64,000 bases of DNA from assembly GCA_016873635.1 (NCBI GenBank), contig VGWJ01000006.1:3102-67101 (forward strand), written 5' to 3'. The translations under genes were made by a program, and so were the position numbers. This document shows positions 10,890-30,906 of the stretch, one piece after another. Numbering within the stretch: the first letter of the stretch is position 1; every line of letters begins with the position of its first letter. Under the pieces are notes generated by a model. That model saw nothing but the letters and a program-made list of their open reading frames with translations, was not told the origin of the DNA and ran no database searches. Source of the stretch: Lentisphaerota bacterium. Lineage in GTDB: Bacteria; Verrucomicrobiota; Kiritimatiellia; UBA8416; VGWJ01.

Positions 10890-11951
10890 ATGCTGGTTGA
10901 CGATCTGGTGCGAAACCCCGGCTCCTGGCTGTCGCACGGCCGGGATACCGGCGTTGTGGTCAGCAGCCGCGCGCGGCTGGCGCGGAACATCCGGGACGTC
11001 GCGTTTCCCGACTGGGCCGGCGAGGAGGAGCGGCTGCGGGTCTGGAGCGAAATGCGCGGGGTGCTGGCCGGGATGCCCGGCCTGGCCGACGCGCTGATCC
11101 TGGACATGGGCGAACTGGCTCCCGTGGACCGGGCCGTGCTGCGCGAGCGGCACCTGGCCAGCCTGGACCTCACGGAAAAGGGCGCCGGCAGCGGACTCGT
11201 GGTCAGCCAGAGCGAGCGCATCGCCGTGATGGTCAACGAGGAGGACCACCTCCGGCTGCAGGCCATCACGCCGGGCATGGAGCTGCTGGAGATGTGGCGC
11301 GAGCTGGACGCCCTGGACACGGCGCTGGAGGAGCGCGTGGAATACGCCTACCATCCGGAGCTGGGCTACCTGACGGCCTGCCCCACGAACGTGGGCACGG
11401 GCCTGCGGGGCAGCGTCATGCTGCACCTGGCGGGGCTGGCCCTGATGAACGAAGTCGAAGCCGTGATCAAGGGCCTCAACCGCATGGGCTACGAGGTCCG
11501 CGGGCTGTTGGGCGAAGGCTCCGAAGCTTCGGGCAACATGTACCAGATATCCAACCGCGTCACGCTGGGACAGAACGAAGAGGACACCGTGCGCGGCATC
11601 ATCGCCATGGCGGAAGAAGTCGTGCGGCACGAGACCAACGCGCGCCTGCGCCTGATGGAGGGCCGGCGCGTGAACGTGCTGGATCACGTCGGGCGGGCCT
11701 ACGGCATTCTCTCGCACGCGCGCGTGCTGTCGTCGGGCGAGGCCGTGCACCTGCTCTCCGCCCTGCGCCTGGGCGTGGATTTCGGCCTCGTGGAGAACCT
11801 GACTCCCGCGTCGATCAACGACGCCATGCTGCTGACCCAGCCGGGCCACCTGCAGAAAACCAGCAAGCGCAACCTGAGCCCGGGCGAAAGGGACGAACTC
11901 CGGGCCGGCATGATCAAGAAACACCTGAAGGGCGTGTGCATCGCGCGCTGA
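10890..11951 (+). CDS. mcsB: Protein arginine kinase McsB (ATP:guanido phosphotransferase family).
   Basis: Conserved ...CPTNVGTGLRGSVMLHLAGL... phosphagen-kinase active-site region. ATG at 10890 lies one nt after the mcsA stop. Confidence 0.9.
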   Translation: MLVDDLVRNPGSWLSHGRDTGVVVSSRARLARNIRDVAFPDWAGEEERLRVWSEMRGVLAGMPGLADALILDMGELAPVDRAVLRERHLASLDLTEKGAGSGLVVSQSERIAVMVNEEDHLRLQAITPGMELLEMWRELDALDTALEERVEYAYHPELGYLTACPTNVGTGLRGSVMLHLAGLALMNEVEAVIKGLNRMGYEVRGLLGEGSEASGNMYQISNRVTLGQNEEDTVRGIIAMAEEVVRHETNARLRLMEGRRVNVLDHVGRAYGILSHARVLSSGEAVHLLSALRLGVDFGLVENLTPASINDAMLLTQPGHLQKTSKRNLSPGERDELRAGMIKKHLKGVCIAR

Positions 11952-18954: not shown

Positions 18955-20493
18955 TCACGGGCCCGGGGACTTGACGTAGATCAGCTTGTGGTCGCCGGGT
19001 TCGTAGAAATCCTCGACGACGCCGGCTTTGCGGAAGCCGTTGCGCTCGTAGAAACGGCGCGGCGGCTCGTAGTCGCTTCGCGATGACGTCTCGACCACGA
19101 TCAGGCGTCCCTGGCGGGCGCGGATCGAGGATTCGGCGCGGGCCAGGAGGGCGCGCGCCACTCCGCGTCGGTGGCATGCCGGGCTGACGGCTATCCAGTA
19201 CAGGTCGAAAGCGCCTGCCGTGCACGGCGTCGGGCCGTAGCAGGTCCACCCCACGACGGCGCCGTCGAGCGTGGCCGTGAATGACTGGTAATGCCCGCCC
19301 TCGCCCTTTGCGAGCGCGTCGTCGAGCACTTCCCTGGCCACGTCCAGTTCGGACGGCCGGAAGACGCCCGTTTCCTTGAGCAGGTTCAGAATGGGCTGCC
19401 GGTCGTGGGGCGCGGACCACGCAATCTGCAGATCCGCCGGGGGCGCGGACGTGCGCGACGGGGGCGGCTCCGGGGCCACGGGCTGGCCCGCGTTGGCAAG
19501 CAGCGCGGCCACGAACTGGGCAAAGCTGATTCCCGCGGCGTGCAGGGCGGAGGCGAAACCGGCGTCGGGCGCGATATCGGGGTTGGGATTCACTTCGATC
19601 ACGAACGGCCGGCCTTCGGCGTCGAGGCGCATGTCCACGCGCGCGTAGTCGCGGCATCCCATGCGCTTCCAGGCGGCCAGGGCCGCGGCGCGGATTGCAT
19701 CGGCCGCCAACTGATCGACGTCGGCCGGCACGCGGCGGATGGTGTGGGCGTATTCGAACGAATCCTCGATCCACTTTGCGCGGTAGTCCACGATGCGCGG
19801 CAGATGGCGCGGGAAGGCGCTGAAGTCGATTTCGGCCAGCGGCAGGACCGACACCTCGCCGCCTCGCTCCAGCAGCGCGACATTGAATTCGCGTCCCTCG
19901 ATGTAGCGCTCGATCAATGCGGGCTGATGCAATTCCCTGTGGATACGGGCGGCGCGTTCGAGCACGGCGGCGCGGTCGGCCCCGGACAGGACGGAAGAGG
20001 CGTCAATGCCTTCGCCGGCGTCGGCGCGCAGGGGTTTGACGATGACGGTCGCGGAGGGAACAAAGGCCGGCAGGTCGGTGTCGCCGGCGTCCAGGACCGC
20101 GGCGACGGGCACGGGGATGCCGGCCGCGCGCATTGCGACTTTGCTTTGCCATTTGTCAAGCGCCAGCAACTGGCAGGCCGTGCCGCTGCCGGTCCAGGCC
20201 TTGCCGAGGGCCGCGCACACGGCGGGCACGAGGCAGGCATCGGTCGCGGACCCGTCCAGGCTCTCGACCAGGTTGATGACGCAAGGTTCGCGGCCGGAGG
20301 ATATCTCCCGGCCGGCCTCGCGCAGCGTGCGCACGGCGGCCAGGCGGTGCGGCACGCCGAGCTCGGTCAGGCCCGCGGCGACGGCGGCGGCTTCGACGAG
20401 CACGCCGGCGTCGGATTCGGCGTCGCGGCGGCTGCCGTCGGCGGCCGGGCCGCGCGGCTGATTGTGGAGGACGAGGACGGGGGGGCGTTCCAC
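18955..20493 (-). CDS. Fusion protein: N-terminal D-Ala-D-Ala-ligase-family ATP-grasp enzyme plus C-terminal GNAT acetyltransferase domain.
   Basis: The ATP-grasp core (...KPLRADAGEGIDASSV..., EIDFSAF, IEVNPNPD) is followed by a ~150-aa GNAT domain (...YWIAVSPACHRRGVARALLARAE...RFYERNGF). Start overlaps the upstream stop. Confidence 0.85.
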   Translation of the reverse strand: MERPPVLVLHNQPRGPAADGSRRDAESDAGVLVEAAAVAAGLTELGVPHRLAAVRTLREAGREISSGREPCVINLVESLDGSATDACLVPAVCAALGKAWTGSGTACQLLALDKWQSKVAMRAAGIPVPVAAVLDAGDTDLPAFVPSATVIVKPLRADAGEGIDASSVLSGADRAAVLERAARIHRELHQPALIERYIEGREFNVALLERGGEVSVLPLAEIDFSAFPRHLPRIVDYRAKWIEDSFEYAHTIRRVPADVDQLAADAIRAAALAAWKRMGCRDYARVDMRLDAEGRPFVIEVNPNPDIAPDAGFASALHAAGISFAQFVAALLANAGQPVAPEPPPSRTSAPPADLQIAWSAPHDRQPILNLLKETGVFRPSELDVAREVLDDALAKGEGGHYQSFTATLDGAVVGWTCYGPTPCTAGAFDLYWIAVSPACHRRGVARALLARAESSIRARQGRLIVVETSSRSDYEPPRRFYERNGFRKAGVVEDFYEPGDHKLIYVKSPGP

Positions 20494-20495
20494 GG

Positions 20496-21500
20496 TCAGG
20501 CTCCCGCGCGCGTCGCGGCGGCGGGCGTCAGGCGTTGCGCGGCGCTGTCGATGATTGCGCCGATGAGTTGCACGTAGGGCATGCCTTCCTGCGTGGCGAT
20601 CATGGGCAGATCGGAGTGGGTGGGGTGCAGTCCGGGCAGGGCGTTCATTTCCATGAACGCCGGCTTGCCGCGGCGGTCCAGGCGAATGTCGACGCGGCCG
20701 GCGTCACGGCATTCCAGGGCCCGATAGGCCTTGAGCGCGAGGTCTTCGACGTCCGCCCGCAGCGCGCCGCGCTCCAGGGCCGCGTAGCGCACAACCGTCT
20801 CGCATTTCTCTTTGACGTCGAAGGAGTAGTCCGCGGAGGAGGCGTTGGGAAGCATGCTGATTTCCATGGTGCCGAGCACGCGCGCGTCCGGACCCGTGCC
20901 GAGCACGCCGGTGGTGAACTCCCGCCCGGGCAGGTACTCCTCCACCAGAACGGGCTGGCGCAGCCGCCGCAGCAGGGGCAGGGCCGTGCGCCGCAGATCC
21001 TGCGGGCCGGCCACGCGCGATTGATGGTCGATGCCCTTGCCGGTGCCCTCGGCGACGGGCTTGACGAAAAGGGGGTAGTCCAGGCTTACGGCGTCGAGGT
21101 CTGCGGGCCGGGATACAAGGCAGAAGCGCGGCGTGGGCAGGCCGCAGGCGAGCACGATGCGTTTGGCCACGGCCTTGTCCAGGGTGACGGCGCAGACCAG
21201 CGCGTCGGACATGGCGCAGGGCACGCCGTAGAGGTCGAGCAGGGCCGGGACCTGGGCTTCGCGGCTGCGTCCTTCCATGCCTTCGGCAATGCTGAACACG
21301 AGGTCCCAGCGGTCGCCCCCGACCAGGCGCGCCGCGAGGGCGCGTCCGCGTCCGACGGGATCGACTTCGTGGCCGCAGGCCCGGATGGCATCGGCCAGGG
21401 CGGCGATCGTGCTCTCGGAGTCGAACTCGGCCACGTCCTCCGCCGAGTAGCCCTCCGTGAGGTATTCGCTGCGCAAATCGTAGACCAGGCCGATTTTCAT
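20496..21500 (-). CDS. D-alanine--D-alanine ligase-family ATP-grasp protein (334 aa).
   Basis: MKIGLVYDLRSEY... with Ddl-like motifs (FVKPVAEGTGKGI, EEYLPGREFT, MEMNALPGL). The rest of ORF 20496..22799 upstream of this start is Arg-rich antisense junk. Confidence 0.85.
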   Translation of the reverse strand: MKIGLVYDLRSEYLTEGYSAEDVAEFDSESTIAALADAIRACGHEVDPVGRGRALAARLVGGDRWDLVFSIAEGMEGRSREAQVPALLDLYGVPCAMSDALVCAVTLDKAVAKRIVLACGLPTPRFCLVSRPADLDAVSLDYPLFVKPVAEGTGKGIDHQSRVAGPQDLRRTALPLLRRLRQPVLVEEYLPGREFTTGVLGTGPDARVLGTMEISMLPNASSADYSFDVKEKCETVVRYAALERGALRADVEDLALKAYRALECRDAGRVDIRLDRRGKPAFMEMNALPGLHPTHSDLPMIATQEGMPYVQLIGAIIDSAAQRLTPAAATRAGA

Positions 21501-21544
21501 TGGTTGCGGCGGCTGATTCGCATCGCGGCGCCCGCAAGCCGCCT

Positions 21545-22951
21545 TCAGGCCGTGTGCGGCCACAGCAACTGCTGGCCGGACACGGAGTCGCAGGCGGCCC
21601 GTCGCTGGACGGAACGGCGCCGGTTGCGATTGCTCCGTTGCGACGACCGGCCGCAGGCCAGGGCCCAGACGCCGCTGTTGTCCGCCGGGCCGCCGCCCGC
21701 ATAGAGCGGAAGATCGTTGCAGGGCTCCGGATAGCTGATCATGTCGCCGGCATAGTTGCGCAGCACGGTGTGGGTCGGGCTGGCGGAAATCACGTAGTTC
21801 GGCAGGACCGGGATCTTGCCGCCGCCGTGCGGGGCGTCCACGACGAACGTCGGTATGGCCAGCCCGCTCAGCCGGCCGCGCAGGTATTCCATGATTTCGA
21901 TGCCTTTGGCCACCGGCGTGCGGAAGTGCTCCACGCCCCGCACCAGGTCGCACTGGAACAGGTAGTACGGCCGCACGCGCGCGCGTACCAGGCGCCGGAA
22001 CAGGTCGGCGAGCAGCGGAGCGGAATCGTTGACCCCGCGCAGCAGCACGGTCTGGTTGCCCACGGGAACGCCGGCGTCGGCCAGGCGCGCGCAGGCGGCC
22101 TCGGAAGCGGGCGTGAGTTCCGCGGGGTGATTGAAGTGCGTGTTGACGTACAGCGGATGGTATTTGCGCAGCATCCGGACAAGCTCGTCGGTGATGCGCA
22201 TGGGGAGGACGACGGGAGTGCGCGTTCCGATGCGGATGATGTCCACGGAGGGCGCCTCGCGCACGGCCCGGATGACGCGTTCCAGCGCGTCCGTCGACAT
22301 GGTGAAGGGGTCGCCGCCGGATATGATCACGTCGCGGACTTCCGGATGGACCGAGAGGTATTCCGTGGTCTGCGTCAGGCGCACGCCGGTTATGCACTCT
22401 TCCGTGTGCCCGGCGACGCGCTTGCGCGTGCAGTGCCGGCAGTACGCGGCGCAGGCCGTGGTTGCGATCAGCAGCGCGCGATCGCGGTAGCGGTGCACCA
22501 GCCCCGGGACGGGCATGTCGCCGTCTTCGCCGAGCGGATCGTCCCTCAGGAAAGGCGGATCGACCAGTTCCTTGCCGTCCGGCACGCACATGGCGAACAC
22601 GGGGTCGGTGGCGTCCAGGCGGCGGATAAGCGAGGCATAGTAGGGGGTGATGGCCAGGGGGAACCGGTTGGCCGCGGCCGCCGTGGCAGCCGTGGTCCTC
22701 AGCGAAGGAAAGCGGCGCTTGAGCGCGGCGACGGAACGCACGCGGTGGCGAAGCTGCCACTGCCAGTCGTCCCAAACCGTGACGTCTCCGTCGGCGCAAA
22801 CCGCGGCGTCAGTCCCCGGCAGGGGGGATTGCGCGTTCCGCGGTGTGGCGTCTGACGGCGGAGGTTCCTCATCGGAGTCCCTCCTTTCATCCCGCGCGTT
22901 TGCCAGGGCAACTCCAGCGTCACGGCTGTCTTGCCTCGCACTCTCCTTCAT
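21545..22951 (-). CDS. kamA: Lysine 2,3-aminomutase (KamA/AblA family radical-SAM enzyme).
   Basis: CAAYCRHCTRKR CxxxCxxC motif, the WDDWQWQLRHRV N-terminal signature, and a PLP-binding region. ATG at 22951 is preceded by GGAGAA; the GTG at 22993 is possible. Confidence 0.9.
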   Translation of the reverse strand: MKESARQDSRDAGVALANARDERRDSDEEPPPSDATPRNAQSPLPGTDAAVCADGDVTVWDDWQWQLRHRVRSVAALKRRFPSLRTTAATAAAANRFPLAITPYYASLIRRLDATDPVFAMCVPDGKELVDPPFLRDDPLGEDGDMPVPGLVHRYRDRALLIATTACAAYCRHCTRKRVAGHTEECITGVRLTQTTEYLSVHPEVRDVIISGGDPFTMSTDALERVIRAVREAPSVDIIRIGTRTPVVLPMRITDELVRMLRKYHPLYVNTHFNHPAELTPASEAACARLADAGVPVGNQTVLLRGVNDSAPLLADLFRRLVRARVRPYYLFQCDLVRGVEHFRTPVAKGIEIMEYLRGRLSGLAIPTFVVDAPHGGGKIPVLPNYVISASPTHTVLRNYAGDMISYPEPCNDLPLYAGGGPADNSGVWALACGRSSQRSNRNRRRSVQRRAACDSVSGQQLLWPHTA

Positions 22952-23105
22952 TCTCGATTCTCCCATTGCGGTTTTCAGAATCAGCGGCTGCACTCTATGT
23001 CGCTTCCGTCACTGCCGCAACATATTTCGGCGCGGCAGGATAACGCCGCGACGCCTCGGCGCGGCAGGACTCCTGCGCGCTTCTGCTACTCGCGCGTCAG
23101 AGATC

Positions 23106-23121
23106 TGCAGGGGGCGTGCCA
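23106..23121 (-). promoter_or_regulatory. Sigma54 (-24/-12) promoter TGGCACG-CCCC-CTGCA, oriented toward kamA.
   Basis: Reverse complement of 23106..23121 reads TGGCACGCCCCCTGCA, matching consensus TGGCACG-N4-TTGCW at all positions but one. Lies ~150 bp upstream of the kamA start and immediately downstream of the sigma54 activator gene. Confidence 0.6.
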
Positions 23122-23250
23122 ATCCGCGCGCGGCGGGGCCCATCCTCTGCAACAAACTTGCGCGTAAAAGCTTAGGCGAGAACGGCGCGCGGTCGCCGGA
23201 GGCAGCAGGTTTCTTCGCCGCCGGGAATCGGAAAGGAGATCCGCGCGCAA

Positions 23251-23274
23251 CCGGAAAACGATTTCCTATTCCGG
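23251..23274. promoter_or_regulatory. Candidate enhancer/UAS palindrome CCGGAAAACGATTTCCTATTCCGG (GGAA..TTCC core) ~130 bp upstream of the kamA sigma54 promoter.
   Basis: Inverted repeat seen directly. A similar GGAA-N-TTCC palindrome sits at the equivalent distance from the second sigma54 promoter. Confidence 0.35.
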
Positions 23275-23287
23275 CGTGTCCGGCGGA

Positions 23288-24715
23288 TCATCGCGGAGGG
23301 GCGCGGAAGTCCTCCTTGCGCAGCCCGTAGCGTCTCATCTTGTTGAAGAGCGAGCGCGGCTCCAGTCCCGCGCGCCGGGCGGTTTCGCCTACGCGTCCGC
23401 CGGTGGCGGCGAGCAGCCTGGCAAGGTATGCGCGCTCGAAGCGCTCGACGGCGGTCTCGCGGATCTCCTTCAGCGGCCGTTCGATCCAGTCGTCGGGGAA
23501 GTCCTCGCCGCCGGGCAAGCGCGGCGCGGGCGCGCCTTCACGGCCGCCGGCGATTTCCGCCGGCAGGTCCGCGAGGCCGATCTGGTCTTCCTCGCACAGG
23601 AGCACGGCGCGTTCCAGAACGTTGATCAATTCGCGCACGTTGCCCGGCCAGGCGTATTCGCAGAGGGCGTCCATGGCTTCGGGCGCGATGCGCCTGGCGC
23701 CGCGTCCGATCCGCGCGAAAAGCCCTTCCATGATGGACGACGCCAGCGCGGGAATATCCCCGCTGCGCTCGCGCAGGGGGGGGACCTCGATGGCGACGAC
23801 TCCCAGGCGGTAGTAAAGGTCGCCGCGAAAACGCTTGTGCTCGACTTCTTCGCGGATATCCCGGTGCGTGGCGGCGATGACGCGCACGTCGACGGGTATC
23901 TTTTTTTCGCTGCCCACGGGCGCGACTTCGTAGTCCTGCAGCACGTGCAGCAGCTTGACCTGCAGGTGAAAGGGCATCTCGCCGATCTCGTCCAGGAAGA
24001 GCGTGCCGCCGTGGGCCAGCTCGAAGCATCCGCGCTGGGCGCGCGTGGCTCCGGTAAAAGCCCCTTTCTCGTGTCCGAAGAGCTGGCTTTCCAGGAGGTT
24101 CTCGGGAATGGCGCCGCAGTTCACGGAGATGAAAGGGCCGTCGGAGCGGCGGCCGTCGTTGTGAATGGCGCGCGCCAGCCGCTCCTTGCCCACGCCCGTC
24201 TCGCCGCTGATCAACAGCGGGGTGTCGCTGTCGGCCACGCGCGTCACGGTGCGCATGAAGCGCTGCATGGCGGGGCTGTCCGAAACGAAGTCGCCGAGGC
24301 CGGGGCGCGGCGTGGTGCGCCGTACGGCGACGGTCTTGCTCAGCAGTTCGCGGCGCTTCCTGGTGATCAGGCGGATGGCTTCCCAGATCACGTCGTCGGG
24401 CACGCCCGTGTAGATCGCCGCCTCGGCGCCCGCGGCGCGCAGGATGGCGAGGTCCTCGGCGTCGTCGTCGCCGGAAAGCACGATCAGGTCCGGGGCGTTG
24501 GCGGAGGACGTGAGGCGGCGGACGTTCTCCTCGACGGGTTCGGGAATCACGCGGTCGCAGACAATGAGGACGTCGGACAAAACCTGCCCGACGGTATCCC
24601 ACGCGGCCTCCCTGGCGACCGGAGCGCGCACGAATGCGTCCACGTCGCGCAGCAGGGCCAGCACGCGGGAGCGGAGCTTGATCTGGTCAACCAGCAGCAG
24701 AATGCGAAGCTGCAT
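23288..24715 (-). CDS. Sigma54-dependent Fis-family transcriptional activator (divergent receiver-like N-domain + AAA+ + HTH).
   Basis: GETGVGKE Walker [22 protein letters not shown], and a C-terminal HTH. ATG at 24715 ([11 protein letters not shown]). Confidence 0.9.
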
Positions 24716-24828
24716 CTGACGGTCCCGGCGTCCTGCGGACGATTCCCTTCGCGGCCGTGGCCGCGAAACGGACAATCACGCGGGTGAATCTATCGGAAGG
24801 CATGCGGGGGTCAATGGGAAAAGCGCGA

Positions 24829-24848
24829 CTCGGAACGCCCTTTCCGAG
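24829..24848. promoter_or_regulatory. Candidate UAS palindrome CTCGGAACGCCCTTTCCGAG. A second perfect palindrome ATGTCGTGCGACAT lies at 24901..24914.
   Basis: Inverted repeats read directly, 55-140 bp upstream of the 24968 sigma54 promoter. Confidence 0.3.
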
Positions 24849-24967
24849 GAAGTCGGAAACGGCGGCTGCGAGGCAAGGCGCGCGCGCGGCGGCGCGGATC
24901 ATGTCGTGCGACATAACAGACGGACAGGCAATACGTTGCATCAAACAGGCGGACTTCGGGCGAAGCT

Positions 24968-24983
24968 TGGCACGGTGCCTGCA
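24968..24983 (+). promoter_or_regulatory. Sigma54 promoter TGGCACG-GTGC-CTGCA, divergent from the activator gene and driving two small ORFs.
   Basis: TTGGCACGGTGCCTGCA has the same architecture as the kamA promoter. First downstream ATG is at 25019, ~36 bp after the -12 element. Confidence 0.6.
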
Positions 24984-25018
24984 CGGATTTCCGGCAGTTC
25001 GTATGTAAGGATGCCGGC

Positions 25019-25186
25019 ATGCCGAGGAAGACGAGCAAGACCGATGAGCCGCTGAAGAAACCGAAGCGGAAGCGCAAGGCGCGCGCGGCGGCGGGAGCGG
25101 CGGACGCCGCCGGGAACCGCTTCAAAGCCGACCAGTTCGAGCAGATGGACGGCGCCGAGTGCACCTGGTTCAAGAAGGCTTGAGCC
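25019..25186 (+). CDS. Small Lys/Arg-rich protein of 55 aa (MPRKTSKTDEPLKKPKRKRKARAAAGAADAAGNRFKADQFEQMDGAECTWFKKA).
   Basis: Below the ORF-track length cutoff. AAGGA sits 8 nt upstream of the ATG, directly downstream of the sigma54 promoter. Confidence 0.35.
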
Positions 25187-25223: not shown

Positions 25224-25406
25224 ATGCCCAACGGAACAAAGCCGAAGAAGAGGGCCGCGGCGCGGCGGAATGCCGTGCGGAAGCTTGCGCCCGAAGAGCG
25301 CTATCGCAAGATCCAGGAAGAAGCGTACCTGCGCGCCGAACGGGACGGCTTTCAGAAGGATCCCGTCGAGTACTGGCTCGCGGCCGAGTCCGTGTTCAAA
25401 GCCTAG
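25224..25406 (+). CDS. DUF2934-family small protein (EERYRKIQEEAYLRAERDGFQKDPVEYWLAAE).
   Basis: Matches the DUF2934 consensus E.IRERAY.LWE..G.P.G...EDWL.AE. 60 aa. Confidence 0.6.
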   Translation: MPNGTKPKKRAAARRNAVRKLAPEERYRKIQEEAYLRAERDGFQKDPVEYWLAAESVFKA

Positions 25407-26827
25407 CGCGGCTCCAGCCGACGGTAGAGGCCTATCGGAAAGAGCAGGAAACGCATCGGCCACGTGCCCATCAGCAGGTTCATGAGCTGAAGGGAACGCG
25501 CGGCCTTGGGTTCCCTGATGCGGCGCACCAGGGCGATGCATGCGATGCGCATGGGGATATTCAGCAGGAACAGCAGGTGGTAGTTGACCCACCGGTGTCC
25601 CATCGCCTCCAGATCGAACCCCGCCGTAAGCTTCAGAAATCCGCCGCCCGCGACGGCCCCCAGGCCGCCGCAGATGCCGGCAAGGCCGGTGATGGACGCA
25701 ATGAACATGGAACGGTTCCGCTGAGGCGCGATTTTGAGCATGTAGCCGTTGCCGGCGACCAGCAGCCCGGCCTCCCACATGCTGTCGAAGAAAAGCATCG
25801 CGGGGAGGAACCACAGGGCCGTTTCCCGGGTTGTCAATAGAAACGCCGCGATTACGAGCGATTTGAGGCCCATGCAGACGGACAGCACCGGCCGATGGCC
25901 GTGCCGGTCGGCGATCTTTCCCCAGAACGAAGAGACCAGCGCTATGCCCAGGCCGATGACCGACCACACCAGGGTGGCCTGCCACACGCTGAGACCGATG
26001 ACCTTGAGCACGTAGACCTGCATGAAAGACGCCGCGAAGAGCGCCGTCGCCGCCCAGGCGCACGAATAGACGACGAAAGGCCGGTACTCGGCGTGGCGCA
26101 AAGGCGCCAGCATGGTTTCGATGATGGGCCTGCCACGCATGACGACGTTCGGCGGTTCGTCCACCCACACGAACAGGCAGATGTCAAGGATGCCCGCCGC
26201 GCTTGCCACCGTCGCCAGGATGGGAAAAGTGATCGTGATGGGCGCGCGCACGAAGGAAACGTAGGCGGCGACCGCGAGGTACGAAAGCGTCCAGGTCGCG
26301 AAAAGCCATTGCTGGCGGCGGCCCCAGTAGCGGTTGAGCACGCGCCGCGGAATCAGGTCCGCCATCCACGACAGGAACAGGGGCCCGGACATGTTGACAA
26401 GCGCGCCGGAAAGAGCGGCCAGGAGCAGCACGAAGGCCACGCCCCGACTGCCGCGCAGGGAGGCAAAGAGCGCCGGCACGACGGCCATCGGGATGTACAG
26501 GAAACGTCCCGCGATCACGAGCGCCATGAACAACGCCTTGCGGCGCGGGACCACGTTGGTGATCACCGCCCCGAGGAACTGCAGCGCGAGCATGATCATG
26601 GGAATCCCGCCCAGCAGCCCGAACTGCGCGTCGGTCGCGCCGAGCGCTCGCAGGAATGCCACGAACGCGGGGCTGCCCGTGCCGACGACGAAGACCATCG
26701 CCAGGCAGCCGGCCGCGGTGATCAGCCGCAACGAGCGCGCGAGCGGAGAGGTGTGGGGTTTATCTTTCACCGTTTCATGCGCATAATCCGCATTGCCGGC
26801 CTTGAGAAGGCCGGCGGGAAGCGTCAC
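25403..26827 (-). CDS. MFS transporter (12 predicted TM segments).
   Basis: Hydrophobic periodicity throughout. Start uncertain: GTG at 26827, GTG at 26770 or ATG at 26698. Confidence 0.8.
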   Translation of the reverse strand: MTLPAGLLKAGNADYAHETVKDKPHTSPLARSLRLITAAGCLAMVFVVGTGSPAFVAFLRALGATDAQFGLLGGIPMIMLALQFLGAVITNVVPRRKALFMALVIAGRFLYIPMAVVPALFASLRGSRGVAFVLLLAALSGALVNMSGPLFLSWMADLIPRRVLNRYWGRRQQWLFATWTLSYLAVAAYVSFVRAPITITFPILATVASAAGILDICLFVWVDEPPNVVMRGRPIIETMLAPLRHAEYRPFVVYSCAWAATALFAASFMQVYVLKVIGLSVWQATLVWSVIGLGIALVSSFWGKIADRHGHRPVLSVCMGLKSLVIAAFLLTTRETALWFLPAMLFFDSMWEAGLLVAGNGYMLKIAPQRNRSMFIASITGLAGICGGLGAVAGGGFLKLTAGFDLEAMGHRWVNYHLLFLLNIPMRIACIALVRRIREPKAARSLQLMNLLMGTWPMRFLLFPIGLYRRLEPR

Positions 26828-26982: not shown

Positions 26983-28200
26983 TTACGACGCGGGCAGCGT
27001 CACGATTCCGAACCAGAAGCTGTCGATGGCCTGCACCACCTTCTCGAACTGCTCGAAGTCCACGGGTTTGGTGACGTAGCAGTTGGCGTTGAGGTTGTAA
27101 GCCCGCAGGATGTCTTCGTCCTGCGTCGAAGTGGTCAGCACGACTACGGGAATACGCTTGAGGTCGGGGTCGGCCTTGATCTCGGCCAGGACCTCGCGTC
27201 CGTCCTTCCTGGGAAGGTTCAGGTCCAGAAGGACCATGTCCGGGCGCGGCGCCTTCGTATAGGGAGGCTCCTTCCGCAGAAAAGCCATGGCCGCGACGCC
27301 GTCCTCGACGACGTGCAGCGTGTTGCACAGCTTGTTCTCCTTGAGAGCGATCCGAACCAGGTCGGCGTCGCCGGCATTGTCCTCAACCAGAAGGATGTCC
27401 GCCACATGCGCGTTTTTCATGTCAGGCCTCCTCTTTCGCCCGGGGCAGGGTGAAGTGGAAGGTTGAACCCTTTCCCGGCTCCGATTCAAGCCATATCTTG
27501 CCGCCATGCCGCTGAGTTCCTCCACGGGCCGTGACAGGCCGGCGGCGACGAAGACGGCAAGCAAGACGCCCGCGGCCAGGACGGCCCCGGCGATCAGCAG
27601 GCTGTCGCGCAGATGCTGTCGCAGCAGTACGACGACGAAATCCACTCCCACGCTTGCGCCCAGGCAGTACTTCCGGCCCCGCGCGTCCGTGCGGGGCACG
27701 AGCACCATCCGTCCGTGGCCCCACTCGTTCCGGAAGGAGCTGTAGGAGATGCGATTCTGGCCGAAGACGGCGTCAAAAGCGGAGGGGTCGCGGTGCGTCT
27801 CCCAGAACCTGGCGTGGTCCTGCCTGGTCACGTCATGGCCGGGCGAGGTGGACGTGGTGAAAACGATCCTGTCGTCAACCCGCATGCAGCTCCACAGGTA
27901 CTGCAGGCCCAACTCCCGGCACCGCCGGTTGTTCTCGGCGACGATCAGGCGGTCGTAATCCTCCGGCGAAATGGAATCCGGCCCGTCGAGCCCGTCGAAG
28001 AACTTCTCGTTCCCGGGCGGCACGTTGCCGGCCAGGACTGCCGCCATGAACAGCCGCCGGTCGATGCCTGCCAGCAGCTCGCGACGCATGGTCCGGCAGC
28101 TGACCGTGACCAGAATCGCCGAGACGACCGTGATCATGAGCGCGGCAGCCGCCGCGTACTGGCTGCGCAGGCTCAGGCGATCCATCAGCTTCCGCAACAT
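26983..28200 (-). CDS. Membrane protein with TM1, a periplasmic Cache-like sensor domain and TM2, fused in-frame to a C-terminal CheY-like receiver domain. No kinase or output domain.
   Basis: ORF is continuous from ATG 28200 ([11 protein letters not shown]..., SD GGAG) to 26983. The receiver portion also has its own ATG at 27420 with a strong SD (AAGAGGAGG), so it may additionally be translated alone. Confidence 0.65.
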
Positions 28201-28232
28201 GGCTTCCGCTCCATGCCCTTTCGCGCTGGGGC

Positions 28233-29138
28233 TCAGTTCATGGCCGGCTGCGCGGGTATCGTGAAATAGAAGCAGGCGCCGCGGCCCGGCTCGGACTCGA
28301 CCCACAGGCGCCCGCCATGACGCTCCACAATCGCCCGGCACAGCGCGAGCCCTGCCCCCAAGCCCGGGTATTCGCGCGCGGTGTGCAGGCGCTGGAAAAC
28401 GGCGAAGATGCGGTCGCGCCGCGCGGGATCAATGCCGATGCCGTTGTCGCTGACGGCGAAAAGGTATTCGCCGTTCCGCTCCGCGGCGCTGACGCGGATG
28501 CGCGGCGGCCGGTCTTTGGCCCTGAACTTGACGGCGTTGTCGAGCAGGCAGGCGAGGAGATCGCCAAGCTGCGCCGGGTCGCCGCTCAAGACCGGCAGGG
28601 GCGACTGCTCGATTTCGCCCCCGGCCGCCTCCAGGACCGGCGCCATGCGGCGCCGCACGGACTCGAGCAGAGCGTTGCAGTCCACGGGAGCCGGCGGCCG
28701 GTCGCAGGCCCACACGCGCGCGATCCGCAGGAGCCCGTCGAGCATAGCCTGGGCTTCGGCGGAGGCGCGCTCAACGTGACCGGCCAGGCGGGACAGTTCG
28801 GAGTCGGAGCCGTTCGCAAGGTGGCGGGCAATCAGTTCCGCGAAGGACCGCGCCTGACGGATGGGCCGCTGCAGATCGTGCGAGACGGCGTACACGAATT
28901 CCTTGAGCCTCGTTCCGGACGGCTCGCTGTCCCTGCCGGGCGGTGGACCTGCGCCGCGCGGCGCGGGCGAAGACGCGCCCGCGCAGGCCGACTTGTCGCT
29001 GGACGTCAACGTTCCTCCTTGGCTTGGCGCCTGCCGCGAGCCCCGGGGCGCACGGGGCCGGAAGTCCGCGTCATTTGTCCTCCAGGACTTCCGCCAGCAC
29101 CCGCTCCAGCTCGGCCATCCGGTACGGCTTGGGCACAA
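28233..29138 (-). CDS. Histidine kinase core (HisKA H-box [14 protein letters not shown] + HATPase_c), no TM or sensor domain. N-terminal boundary uncertain.
   Basis: H, N, G1 and G2 boxes are present. The first ~85 codons are Ser/Pro/Gly/Arg-rich and overlap the 3' end of the upstream hybrid kinase. Confidence 0.7.
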
Positions 29139-30615
29139 CGCCGCAGAACCCGTGCTCGCGCGGATTGCTCATGACGGGGTCGTCGCAGTAGCCGCTGGAC
29201 ACGATCGCCCGCGCCTGCGGGTCAATGGCCCGGAGACGCTGCATGAACTCGCGTCCGCCCATCCCGCCGGCGACGGTGAGGTCCGCGATCACGGCGCCGA
29301 AGGGCCGCCGCTCGGCCATGGCAACGCGGTAGGCCTCCAGCGCCGCGGCGCCATCGGCTGCGACAGTGACCTCGAAATGCAGGCGCTCGAGGTAGCGTTT
29401 GGCCAGGCGGCGCACGGCTTCTTCGTCATCCATGACCAGCAGCCTGCCGCCGCGCGCCGGTCGCGGCGTTCCCGCGGGCGGTTCGGCGACGGCCGCGGCG
29501 GAGGAGGCCGGCAGATAGACCGAAAAGGTGGCGCCGCATCCGAGAGTCGAGACCGCCGTGATCGTGCCGCCGTGCCTATGCACGATGGAAAACGCCGTGG
29601 CCAGCCCCAGTCCGCTGCCTTTCTGCTTCGTCGTGAAATACGGATCGAAAATCCGCGTGAGGTGCTCTTCGGGGATCCCGGGTCCCTGGTCCGCAAAAGT
29701 AATCCTCACGTACGCGCCGGGGCTCAGCGGCAGGCCGTCTCTTGCCGTGACGGCGGCGTTCTCCGCGCAAACACGGATCGTTCCGCCCTGGGGCATGGCC
29801 TGGTCGGCGTTCAGGACGATATTCCCGACGACCTGGGCGATCTGCCCGACGTCTACTTCGACGGCGCGGAGGTCCTGCGCAAGCTCGATCTGGGCGCGCA
29901 CGTCCGATCCGCGCAGCGCAAAGCTCACGGCGTCTTCGAGCACGCCGGAAAGCGCCGTGACCCTCTTTATCGGCACGCCGCCGCGCGCGAAGGTCAGGAG
30001 CTGACGCGTCAGGGACGTCGCGCGCGCCGCGGCGTTCTCCGCCTCGTTGAGCAGTTCGGCGCGCTGGTGGTCGGGCGCCGAGCGCGCCAGCGAGATGTTG
30101 CCGAGAATGCCCATCAGCAGGTTGTTGAAGTCGTGCGCGATGCCGCCGGCCAGGACGCCGAGGCTTTCCAGCTTCTCGATGCGCATGTTCTGCTCGCGTT
30201 CGCGCGCTTCCAGGATCTGCTGCTGCATGCGGTGGCGTTCGATCGCGTGCAGCAGGGCGCGTCGCACATCGTCGCGGTCGGCCTTGCCCTTGACGAGATA
30301 GTCCTGGGCGCCGTGGTGCACCGCTTCCAGGGCGACGCCCTCGTCGTCCATGCCGGTGATCACGACCACGGGCGCGGGGATGCCGGCTTCGTGAATTGTC
30401 TTGAGCGCGTCCAGGCCGCGCGCATCGGGCAGGGACAGGTCCAGCAGCACGGCGTCCGGCGTGGCCGCGCGCAGCGCTTCCAGCGCCGCGGCCAGCGAGG
30501 CGGCGGTCTTCACGGAAATGTGCGGCAGGGCGGAATCGGCCAGCATGGCCCGCACAAGGCTGGCGTCCCGGGGATCGTCCTCCACCAGCAGCACATGGAG
30601 CGTCTCGGCCTGCAT
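29071..30615 (-). CDS. Hybrid sensor histidine kinase/response regulator (REC - HisKA - HATPase_c - REC).
   Basis: MQAETLHVLLVEDD receiver, H-box GIAHDFNNLL, HATPase G-boxes, and a second receiver (LLVMDDEEAV...). ATG at 30615. Confidence 0.85.
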   Translation of the reverse strand: MQAETLHVLLVEDDPRDASLVRAMLADSALPHISVKTAASLAAALEALRAATPDAVLLDLSLPDARGLDALKTIHEAGIPAPVVVITGMDDEGVALEAVHHGAQDYLVKGKADRDDVRRALLHAIERHRMQQQILEAREREQNMRIEKLESLGVLAGGIAHDFNNLLMGILGNISLARSAPDHQRAELLNEAENAAARATSLTRQLLTFARGGVPIKRVTALSGVLEDAVSFALRGSDVRAQIELAQDLRAVEVDVGQIAQVVGNIVLNADQAMPQGGTIRVCAENAAVTARDGLPLSPGAYVRITFADQGPGIPEEHLTRIFDPYFTTKQKGSGLGLATAFSIVHRHGGTITAVSTLGCGATFSVYLPASSAAAVAEPPAGTPRPARGGRLLVMDDEEAVRRLAKRYLERLHFEVTVAADGAAALEAYRVAMAERRPFGAVIADLTVAGGMGGREFMQRLRAIDPQARAIVSSGYCDDPVMSNPREHGFCGVVPKPYRMAELERVLAEVLEDK

Positions 30616-30906
30616 GCCCTGTCTCGCGCAGCGGTTTCCCTGAACCTCTCCCGCCGGCGGAGCGCTCGACGCCGCGTCCCGCAAACAGGGTTTCGGACCG
30701 CTCGGGAAAGAATATAGCGGCTAAAACGTTGTGCTACAAGCGCTATCGACGGCCGCGCAGCCGTGGGCGACGGGCCGGTCGGCCATGCGGCGGGCGCCCT
30801 TGCTTCCCGGCTGTTTCTCCGCGGGCCAAAAGGGTGGCGGCGGCGCGCGCGCGCTGCTATGCTCGGGAGGCGAATCGGGTCCGGGCGGCGGCAAGGAGTA
30901 GCGGAC

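Follow-up and report, generated by a model that had tools for sequence, protein, structure and literature searches.

Canonical enhancer-dependent sigma-54 promoters include glnAp2, activated by NtrC, and nifH, activated by NifA together with integration host factor (IHF). In Escherichia coli, the activator PspF lacks a phospho-receiver, lies divergent from a stress operon with a sigma-54 promoter and IHF, and is subject to feedback from the first product of that operon; the E. coli ibpB sigma-54 promoter is a further precedent. More recently, a 2025 survey of Planctomycetota based on matrix predictions reports an enrichment of sigma-54 promoters at the genes for GroEL, GroES, IbpA, DnaK, Usp, and MscS (PLoS One, PMC12316311), and the regulons of enhancer-binding proteins have been reconstructed comparatively in Desulfovibrio vulgaris (BMC Genomics 2015, PMC4641369). 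Here we describe a short element, TGGCACGGTGCCTGCA, at positions 24968-24983 of a 64-kb stretch of Lentisphaerae DNA (contig VGWJ01000006.1; hereafter the window), which lies between a gene for a sigma-54 activator and two divergently oriented genes for small basic proteins. We consider it about 85% probable that this element is a functional and otherwise standard enhancer-dependent sigma-54 promoter driven by the neighboring activator. The features on which this reading depends are as follows.

24968..24983, + strand: predicted sigma-54 (-24/-12) promoter, TGGCACGGTGCCTGCA, a strict pattern match conserved in orthologous loci
24830..24858, no strand assigned: putative upstream activator site (enhancer), three half-sites alternating in orientation, conserved and the sole perfect match in the window
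24926..24938, + strand: tentative IHF-like bending site, AGGCAATACGTTG, with two mismatches to WATCAANNNNTTR
25007..25011, + strand: Shine-Dalgarno AAGGA, 7 nt ahead of the small-gene ATG, read from the sequence
25019..25183, + strand: gene for a basic protein of 54 amino acids (aa), a conserved open reading frame (ORF) at the same position in related loci
25224..25406, + strand: gene for a 60-aa DUF2934 protein (PF11154), with a GGAGG ribosome-binding site
23288..24715, - strand: gene for a 475-aa sigma-54 enhancer-binding protein (the activator), with Pfam domains Sigma54_activat, AAA_lid_14, and HTH_8

A sequence-only reading of this DNA had proposed that the element shares its architecture with a promoter ahead of kamA, and this is borne out: both match TGGCACG-N4-YTGCW, a pattern with exactly two occurrences in the window, at 24968-24983 (+) and 23106-23121 (-), although the 17-mer quoted in that reading begins at 24967. 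The sequence around the element reads GCGAAGCTTGGCACGGTGCCTGCACGG, which contains TGGCACGGTGCCTGCA. The GG (24969-70) and GC (24981-82) dinucleotides have the canonical 10-bp offset of sigma-54 promoters, and the single departure from a TGGCAC-N5-TTGCW-like consensus is a C in place of T ahead of TGC. By the standard -12 convention, transcription is predicted to start at about 24994, giving a leader of about 25 nt, and the element ends 36 nt ahead of the small-ORF ATG. One explanation to be weighed is that the motif resembles a sigma-54 element by chance, or is the remnant of one, and does not act as a promoter, the small ORFs being transcribed from elsewhere or never. GG..GC motifs do arise readily in high-GC genomes, and a looser generic consensus with one mismatch allowed shows no enrichment in the window and is not significant alone. 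In contrast, the strict pattern has a mean of 0.02 matches in dinucleotide-preserving shuffles (two or more matches in 0 of 100), and its two actual matches both flank the activator gene. Because the one-mismatch consensus is not enriched, the weight against chance comes from the strict pattern and above all from conservation.

Relatives of the activator were collected by protein search as full-length proteins with 50-76% identity over 99% of their length; they came from Lentisphaerae, Kiritimatiellae, and Planctomycetota bins, and the contigs of several were compared. We treated as orthologues the activators of 70-76% identity, all from Lentisphaerae/Kiritimatiellae metagenomes, and a motif scan of metagenomes for the small protein yielded seven further loci (related loci are cited below by L numbers). 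Every orthologue of at least ~70% identity has a sigma-54 element in the divergent intergenic region, directed away from the activator; four of these elements are given here.

Locus L091: TGGCACGGCGAATGCG
Locus L096: TGGCACGCCTCGTGCA
Locus L097: TGGCACACGTCGTGCA
Locus L093: TGGCACGGAGAGTGCA

Upstream of each such divergent element, at ~135-140 bp, lies a perfect TCGGAA-N6-TTCCGA-N5-TCGGAA. Distances were scored in nine distinct loci, in all of which the small ORF is preceded by TGGCAC-N6-TGC with the enhancer starting 135-140 bp from the TGG. The promoter had been claimed to serve the small ORFs, and its position fits, since the end of the element lies 36-42 nt ahead of the start codon of the conserved 54-aa gene in eight of the nine; in the ninth (L097), the automatic start pick gave 8 nt to the ATG and the annotated start is ~45 nt downstream. 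When 11 promoter regions are aligned, the mean identity is only 55%, and invariant columns are limited to the enhancer half-sites, an IHF-like box in the spacer, the -24/-12 boxes, and the ribosome-binding site; the -12 box in the clade of these loci reads NTGC, not TTGC. This conservation of enhancer and -24/-12 boxes reads as a strong phylogenetic footprint of an enhancer-dependent sigma-54 promoter. The identification of a sigma-54 promoter thus withstands comparison, with the -24/-12 element in the same place in every orthologous locus examined while the surrounding intergenic DNA has diverged. The same footprint effectively refutes a chance origin, since every related locus preserves the element together with its spacing to the ATG and to the enhancer, and the neighboring bases are not preserved; we regard that explanation as very improbable.

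The enhancer in the window reads TCGGAA-CGCCCT-TTCCGA-GGAAG-TCGGAA and begins 138 bp upstream of the -24 TGG; 24830-24858 is the only perfect match in the 64 kb. The 11 aligned promoter regions show no variation in the half-sites TCGGAA and TTCC and very little in the third half-site. Half-site spacings of N6 and N5 fit these data, and a spacing of N7 returned only noise. We also asked how often enhancer and promoter occur together, using 135 kb from 11 non-redundant loci, enhancer cores with at most one mismatch, and a promoter defined as TGGC[AG][CT]-N6-TGC. Of 18 enhancer cores, 17 have a sigma-54 motif on their downstream side at a distance of 114-149 bp, where ~0.014 per site is expected by chance; the 18th, which has no sigma-54 motif of its own, is a tandem copy. 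At all small-ORF and hsp20 promoters the distance is 135-140 bp. The spacer between enhancer and promoter is otherwise unconserved in the 11-region alignment, apart from a CATAAC box (24912-24917) in which AA (24915-16) is near-invariant and an invariant TT (24936-37); at the position aligned to the window's IHF-like site, WATCAANNNNTTR is present without mismatch in L091. The same alignment shows a conserved purine-rich, GAGG-like box at the Shine-Dalgarno position. We know of no described enhancer site that matches TCGGAA-N6-TTCCGA with a third half-site, and we found no literature on Lentisphaerae, this activator, or its site in this connection.

Two related loci bear on the orientation of the site. 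In L098 (208-495), two divergent sigma-54 promoters flank a single central enhancer (344-361) at distances of 137 and 139 bp, so that the palindromic core is apparently able to serve both directions. In L099, the enhancer of groES (10999-11016) may also serve a TGGTAC-type promoter on the other strand, 116 bp off.

The second strict match in the window lies on the other side of the activator gene, and its components are as follows.

23106..23121, - strand: predicted sister sigma-54 promoter of the kamA operon, TGGCACGCCCCCTGCA, the second strict match in the window
23228..23268, - strand: putative enhancer of the kamA promoter, TAGGAA-ATCGTT-TTCCGG, then 17 nt, then TTCCGA; 147 bp upstream of the -24 TGG

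This enhancer starts ~20 bp past the activator stop codon. The earlier proposal that one activator is bracketed by two target promoters is supported as to arrangement: in the whole window, TCGGAA-N6-TTCCGA with at most two mismatches matches only the perfect site at 24830 and 23251-23268, and each of these cores has a promoter downstream of it, at 138 and 147 bp, respectively. Binding of the activator at both remains, from the sequence, presumptive. The sister promoter is kept upstream of kamA in L091 (6779) and L097 (4831), where the kamA enhancers are better copies than in the window (zero mismatches in L091, one in L097). These sites define a second layout, in which an inverted repeat is followed after ~16 nt by TTYYG and the distance to the promoter is 147-149 bp (kamA of L091 and L097; groES of L096 and L099). 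About one turn of the helix separates the 135-140 bp spacing class from the 147-149 bp class, and the window has one promoter of each class, one on either side of the activator gene.

The activator itself is readily assigned to the enhancer-binding proteins (Sigma54_activat PF00158, 5.9e-71; AAA_lid_14 PF25601, 2.3e-24; HTH_8 PF02954, 3.8e-7); its translation contains GAFTGA and ends in a Fis-type helix-turn-helix (HTH). No equivalog cutoff was reached in an NCBIfam scan, and a Pfam scan gave no Response_reg match at E≤0.01. In an alignment of the receiver domain from 56 members of the family, position 54, the phospho-acceptor, is R, Q, or H in nearly all other members, and Asp is present in the window protein only (1 of 56). 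Within the N-terminus (residues 1-135), the acidic pair at positions 10/11 is variable and the conserved Lys is replaced by Gly or Val, and the 56 members retain the receiver-like signature of a DV(L/I) strand and a Pro four residues past position 54. The N-terminus is thus best described, from its sequence, as a pseudo-receiver, and the protein as NtrC-class in its working and apparently not a classical phospho-activated response regulator.

The element could be a genuine sigma-54 promoter and still answer to a different enhancer-binding protein, with TCGGAA-N6-TTCCGA belonging to that other regulator and the neighboring activator being coincidental or devoted to kamA only. Other response regulators and kinases are encoded on the contig (26983-30684), and the module of enhancer and promoter occurs with no activator gene alongside in 3 of 11 loci (L098, L105, and the second small-ORF copy of L093), so that the activator gene need not be adjacent and the site might in principle be bound by another protein. 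Against this, the activator gene adjoins the small ORF in the other 8 of the 11 loci, across 70-76% identity, while the other flanking genes change, and members of the clade retaining the TCGGAA site differ little in the HTH region of the activator. More-distant relatives are also informative: a divergent sigma-54 promoter but no TCGGAA site is present in L108 (58% identity) and L109 (54%), and L100 (59%, from the same metagenome) has neither and is likely a paralogue. Absence of the site across this 54-59% range is as expected if DNA-binding domain and site co-evolve. We therefore consider control by another activator improbable. A scan of species-representative genomes with the whole activator returned only generic paralogues of at most 48% identity, none with this context, the matches being dominated by the universal AAA+ motifs.

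Several observations weigh against a functional promoter driven by the neighboring activator and should be set beside that estimate. The modules that stand apart from an activator gene have been noted above. The receiver domain of the activator lacks features required for phospho-activation. The window's own IHF-like match is weak, with two mismatches, and its kamA enhancer is degenerate, also with two. A regular-expression search for the RpoN box finds no rpoN gene in the window, and the presence of sigma-54 in the host is to be presumed from the activator; dependence of the promoter on it in vivo is likewise presumptive. Finally, the source is an uncultured Lentisphaerae metagenome-assembled genome from a lake metagenome, and the case for the promoter is built from sequence and comparative evidence.

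With these points in mind, we propose that the activator (23288-24715) would use its C-terminal Fis-type HTH to bind the three half-sites of the enhancer (24830-24858), and that the intervening DNA would be looped, probably aided by an IHF-like bend near 24926-24938. The AAA+ domain, acting through its GAFTGA loop, would then spend ATP to open the closed complex of sigma-54 holoenzyme on the GG/GC element, and transcription would begin near 24994 to give a bicistronic mRNA for the 54-aa basic protein and the 60-aa DUF2934 protein. The same activator would drive the kamA operon from the second enhancer/promoter pair (23268-23106), and in related genomes the same activator family would drive groES/groEL, hsp20, usp, and other stress genes. 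A sigma-70-like promoter candidate for the activator gene itself directly adjoins the enhancer; autoregulation through this arrangement is speculation.

24787..24814, - strand: sigma-70-like promoter candidate for the activator gene, TTGACC-16-TAGATT (consensus scan only, 9/12 matches)

The neighbors of the activator vary between loci. Next to the major facilitator superfamily (MFS) transporter gene that lies beyond the DUF2934 gene, the - strand at 26983-30684 encodes two kinases, one a short histidine kinase and the other a hybrid with two receiver domains, together with a protein that has a response-regulator domain; this cluster is not a conserved neighbor of the activator in relatives and so is probably not its sensor. 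In loci that have no kamA operon, the activator is flanked by a glutathione-synthetase/RimK-like ATP-grasp gene (L093, 7333-8388; L095/L096, 7009-10789; L099, 6472-10692), which is joined in L095/L096 and L099 by genes for a MATCAP-like (formerly DUF1704) metallopeptidase and an N-formylglutamate-amidohydrolase-like protein and stands alone within the stretch examined in L093. Some ATP-grasp ligase is present beside the activator in every long locus of the enhancer-keeping clade, and none in the stretches of L100 and L109.

The predicted targets of the promoter are much as the sequence-only reading had them, in that the element points away from the activator toward a Lys-rich ORF and a DUF2934 gene, except that the ORF encodes 54 aa and not 55. 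The 54-aa protein has 10 Lys and 5 Arg and an isoelectric point (pI) of 10.2. Its N-terminal ~37 residues are Lys/Arg-rich (pI 11.5) and poorly conserved, and its C-terminal 17 residues, DQFEQMDGAECTWFKKA, are conserved. In the family as a whole, members of which were recovered by synteny and by the motif scan of metagenomes, an acidic/aromatic tail, DQFxQMDGAESTYFKKA-stop, follows a variable Lys/Arg-rich N-terminal two-thirds with pI 10.6-12.0; M1, D38, F40, M43, G45, E47, and F51-K52-K53-A54 are invariant in syntenic homologues. A remote homologue, ending GAESPYLRKG, is encoded in L108 (4577-4832, -) after the divergent sigma-54 promoter, beside an activator of 58% identity and with no TCGGAA enhancer; the vicinity also contains a kinase/regulator pair and an operon of the kamA/ATP-grasp type.

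The shortness of both ORFs raises the question as to whether they are spurious calls and the promoter, though real, drives an RNA with a non-coding or regulatory role. No family is assigned to the 54-aa ORF (0 Pfam and 0 NCBIfam matches, and 0 among PDB sequences searched with the family profile), a k-mer protein search returns only the query itself, and its AlphaFold2 model (a two-sequence run) is a single low-confidence helix with a predicted local distance difference test (pLDDT) score of 58.7. However, the 17 tail codons are conserved as amino acids, the third position varying in 15 of 17 and positions 1 and 2 in 6 and 8, respectively; because this variation falls mostly at third codon positions, the ORF is taken to be a real gene. 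The position of the stop codon is kept, the ATG and ribosome-binding site are conserved, the DUF2934 ORF passes its Pfam threshold, and an Rfam search gave no family at E≤1. We thus give an RNA product very little credence. Metagenome gene callers had called both ORFs independently. An exhaustive phmmer search of 1.84 billion representative proteins with the 54-aa ORF gave one true homologue; two other matches, to repetitive proteins of 2,000 aa, were rejected as spurious. The 54-aa protein represents a previously unrecognized family that is missed by standard homology searches. The low-pLDDT model is uninformative as to structure and is consistent with disorder.

The DUF2934 gene begins 40 nt past the small ORF, and a scan of the + strand between the two found no terminator-like site; the two genes are most likely co-transcribed. 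Its product (pI 10.0) matches PF11154 over residues 25-56 with E=4e-8 and 33.2 bits (cutoff 22). In L097, L093, and L099, too, a DUF2934 gene comes after the small ORF or hsp20. A PDB sequence search with the DUF2934 protein was empty, and in the literature we found nothing on the function of DUF2934. The operon is closed by the convergent MFS gene, which overlaps the DUF2934 stop codon, so that the transcription unit consists of two genes.

25403-26827, - strand: convergent MFS transporter gene, overlapping the DUF2934 stop codon by 4 nt (25403-25406)

There is no terminator-like hairpin between these two genes, and convergent transcription could therefore collide. From composition and regulon membership, our best guess is that both small proteins are hydrophilic, highly charged, and disordered, with a stress-protective or a nucleic-acid- or ribosome-binding role.

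The other predicted target in the window, the kamA operon (18955-22993, -), contains a true lysine 2,3-aminomutase and two Ddl-like ATP-grasp ligases, one of them fused to GNAT.

21545-22951, - strand: kamA, lysine 2,3-aminomutase (AblA model, 478 bits)
20496-21500, - strand: Ddl-like ATP-grasp gene of the kamA operon
18955-20493, - strand: ATP-grasp/GNAT fusion gene of the kamA operon

AblA and AblB make N-epsilon-acetyl-beta-lysine. The kamA operon looks like an acetylated beta-lysine peptide or osmolyte pathway distinct from the two-gene ablAB, and probably makes a beta-lysine-derived compatible solute; the ATP-grasp/GNAT fusion protein has a weak match to the N-acetylglutaminylglutamine synthetase model. 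The kamA loci of L091 and L097 add a GNAT/histone-deacetylase-like gene.

The two promoters had also been taken to form a small regulon, and in this respect the earlier view was too narrow, because relatives have this module ahead of groES, hsp20, usp, and further stress genes. The additional predicted targets are as follows.

L096 and L099: groES/groEL
L093: hsp20, then DUF2934, Usp (universal stress protein), and further genes
L096: a 136-aa protein and Usp
L098 and L101: small ORF and hsp20
L105: small ORF and Usp
L102: a 359-aa protein, small ORF, and OsmC

Farther downstream of the small ORF are genes for an MscS-like channel in L101 and for an S-adenosylmethionine (SAM) synthetase and an HtrA-like protein in L105. 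With groES, hsp20, and usp under the same module in relatives, the promoter belongs to a stress regulon, and the module most likely answers heat, osmotic, or general proteotoxic stress. Control of the relatives' groES genes by CIRCE/HrcA was considered and set aside, as no element with fewer than six mismatches was found. At L093 (4518-4758, -), the module-driven hsp20 has a leader of ~225 nt, compared with ~25-30 nt at the small ORFs, and is thus long enough to contain an RNA thermometer or a small ORF that was overlooked.

Microviridins, in which neighboring ATP-grasp/GNAT genes serve a small precursor, were the model for the idea that the 54-aa protein is the precursor of a ribosomally synthesized and post-translationally modified peptide acted on by the ATP-grasp, GNAT, and radical-SAM genes. 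This idea was set aside as a leading explanation: the ATP-grasp proteins are Ddl-like, the radical-SAM protein scores as a true lysine 2,3-aminomutase, the small ORF is present where there is no kamA operon, and the N-terminus has no conserved leader motif. A different proposal, which we think unlikely but worth stating, is that the 54-aa protein is a feedback or sensing partner of the activator, following the logic of PspA and PspF, or that its tail (ESTYFKKA) is a substrate of the activator-linked ATP-grasp ligases or MATCAP-like peptidases; promoter, protein, and activator would then constitute a self-contained switch. If this were true, Lentisphaerae and Kiritimatiellae would use the switch in place of sigma-32/HrcA heat-shock circuits to control groESL, hsp20, and osmolyte synthesis.

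The promoter mechanism itself is textbook, and what is new is the motif with its spacing rules, the small-protein family, and a receiver domain that appears blind to phosphorylation. Together they define, for a stress regulon of a barely studied, uncultured lineage (Lentisphaerae/Kiritimatiellae), an activator subfamily, its putative binding motif, and two fixed classes of spacing; the regulon takes in groES/groEL, hsp20, and usp, small proteins, and a probable pathway for a beta-lysine osmolyte. The statistical link of chaperone genes to sigma-54 promoters in phyla related to the Planctomycetes-Verrucomicrobia-Chlamydiae (PVC) group now has a named candidate regulator and site behind it. An activator whose receiver is not phosphorylatable in the usual way also raises the testable question of how stress is sensed.

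The association of sigma-54 with chaperones is already published for a neighboring phylum in the Planctomycetota survey (PMC12316311). That study, also computational and also of PVC-group phyla, arrives at the same target classes of GroES/GroEL, small heat-shock protein, Usp, and MscS; it differs in that its promoters are matrix-scored, and its portions used here name no cognate activator or enhancer for the chaperone genes, give 0 occurrences for Lentisphaerae, and describe no small-protein family. The Desulfovibrio vulgaris study follows the same logic as ours, pairing an activator with a conserved upstream site and a -24/-12 promoter beside the activator gene, in another phylum and with other activators (PMC4641369). 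With the NtrC and NifA systems the locus shares GG and GC dinucleotides 10 bp apart, an inverted-repeat enhancer ~110-150 bp upstream, an IHF-like element in the spacer, and an activator with an AAA+ GAFTGA domain and a Fis-type HTH that is encoded beside its targets; it departs from them in a family receiver without the phospho-acceptor Asp, in targets related to stress and not to nitrogen, and in the NTGC form of its -12 box. PspF has no N-terminal domain at all, whereas a pseudo-receiver is retained here, and the 54-aa basic protein is unrelated to PspA, a 222-aa coiled-coil protein. In other respects the locus resembles PspF/pspA: activator and target are divergent, the context is one of stress, the activator is apparently not controlled by phosphorylation, and no other gene is linked to the activator as faithfully as the one that opens the divergent operon.

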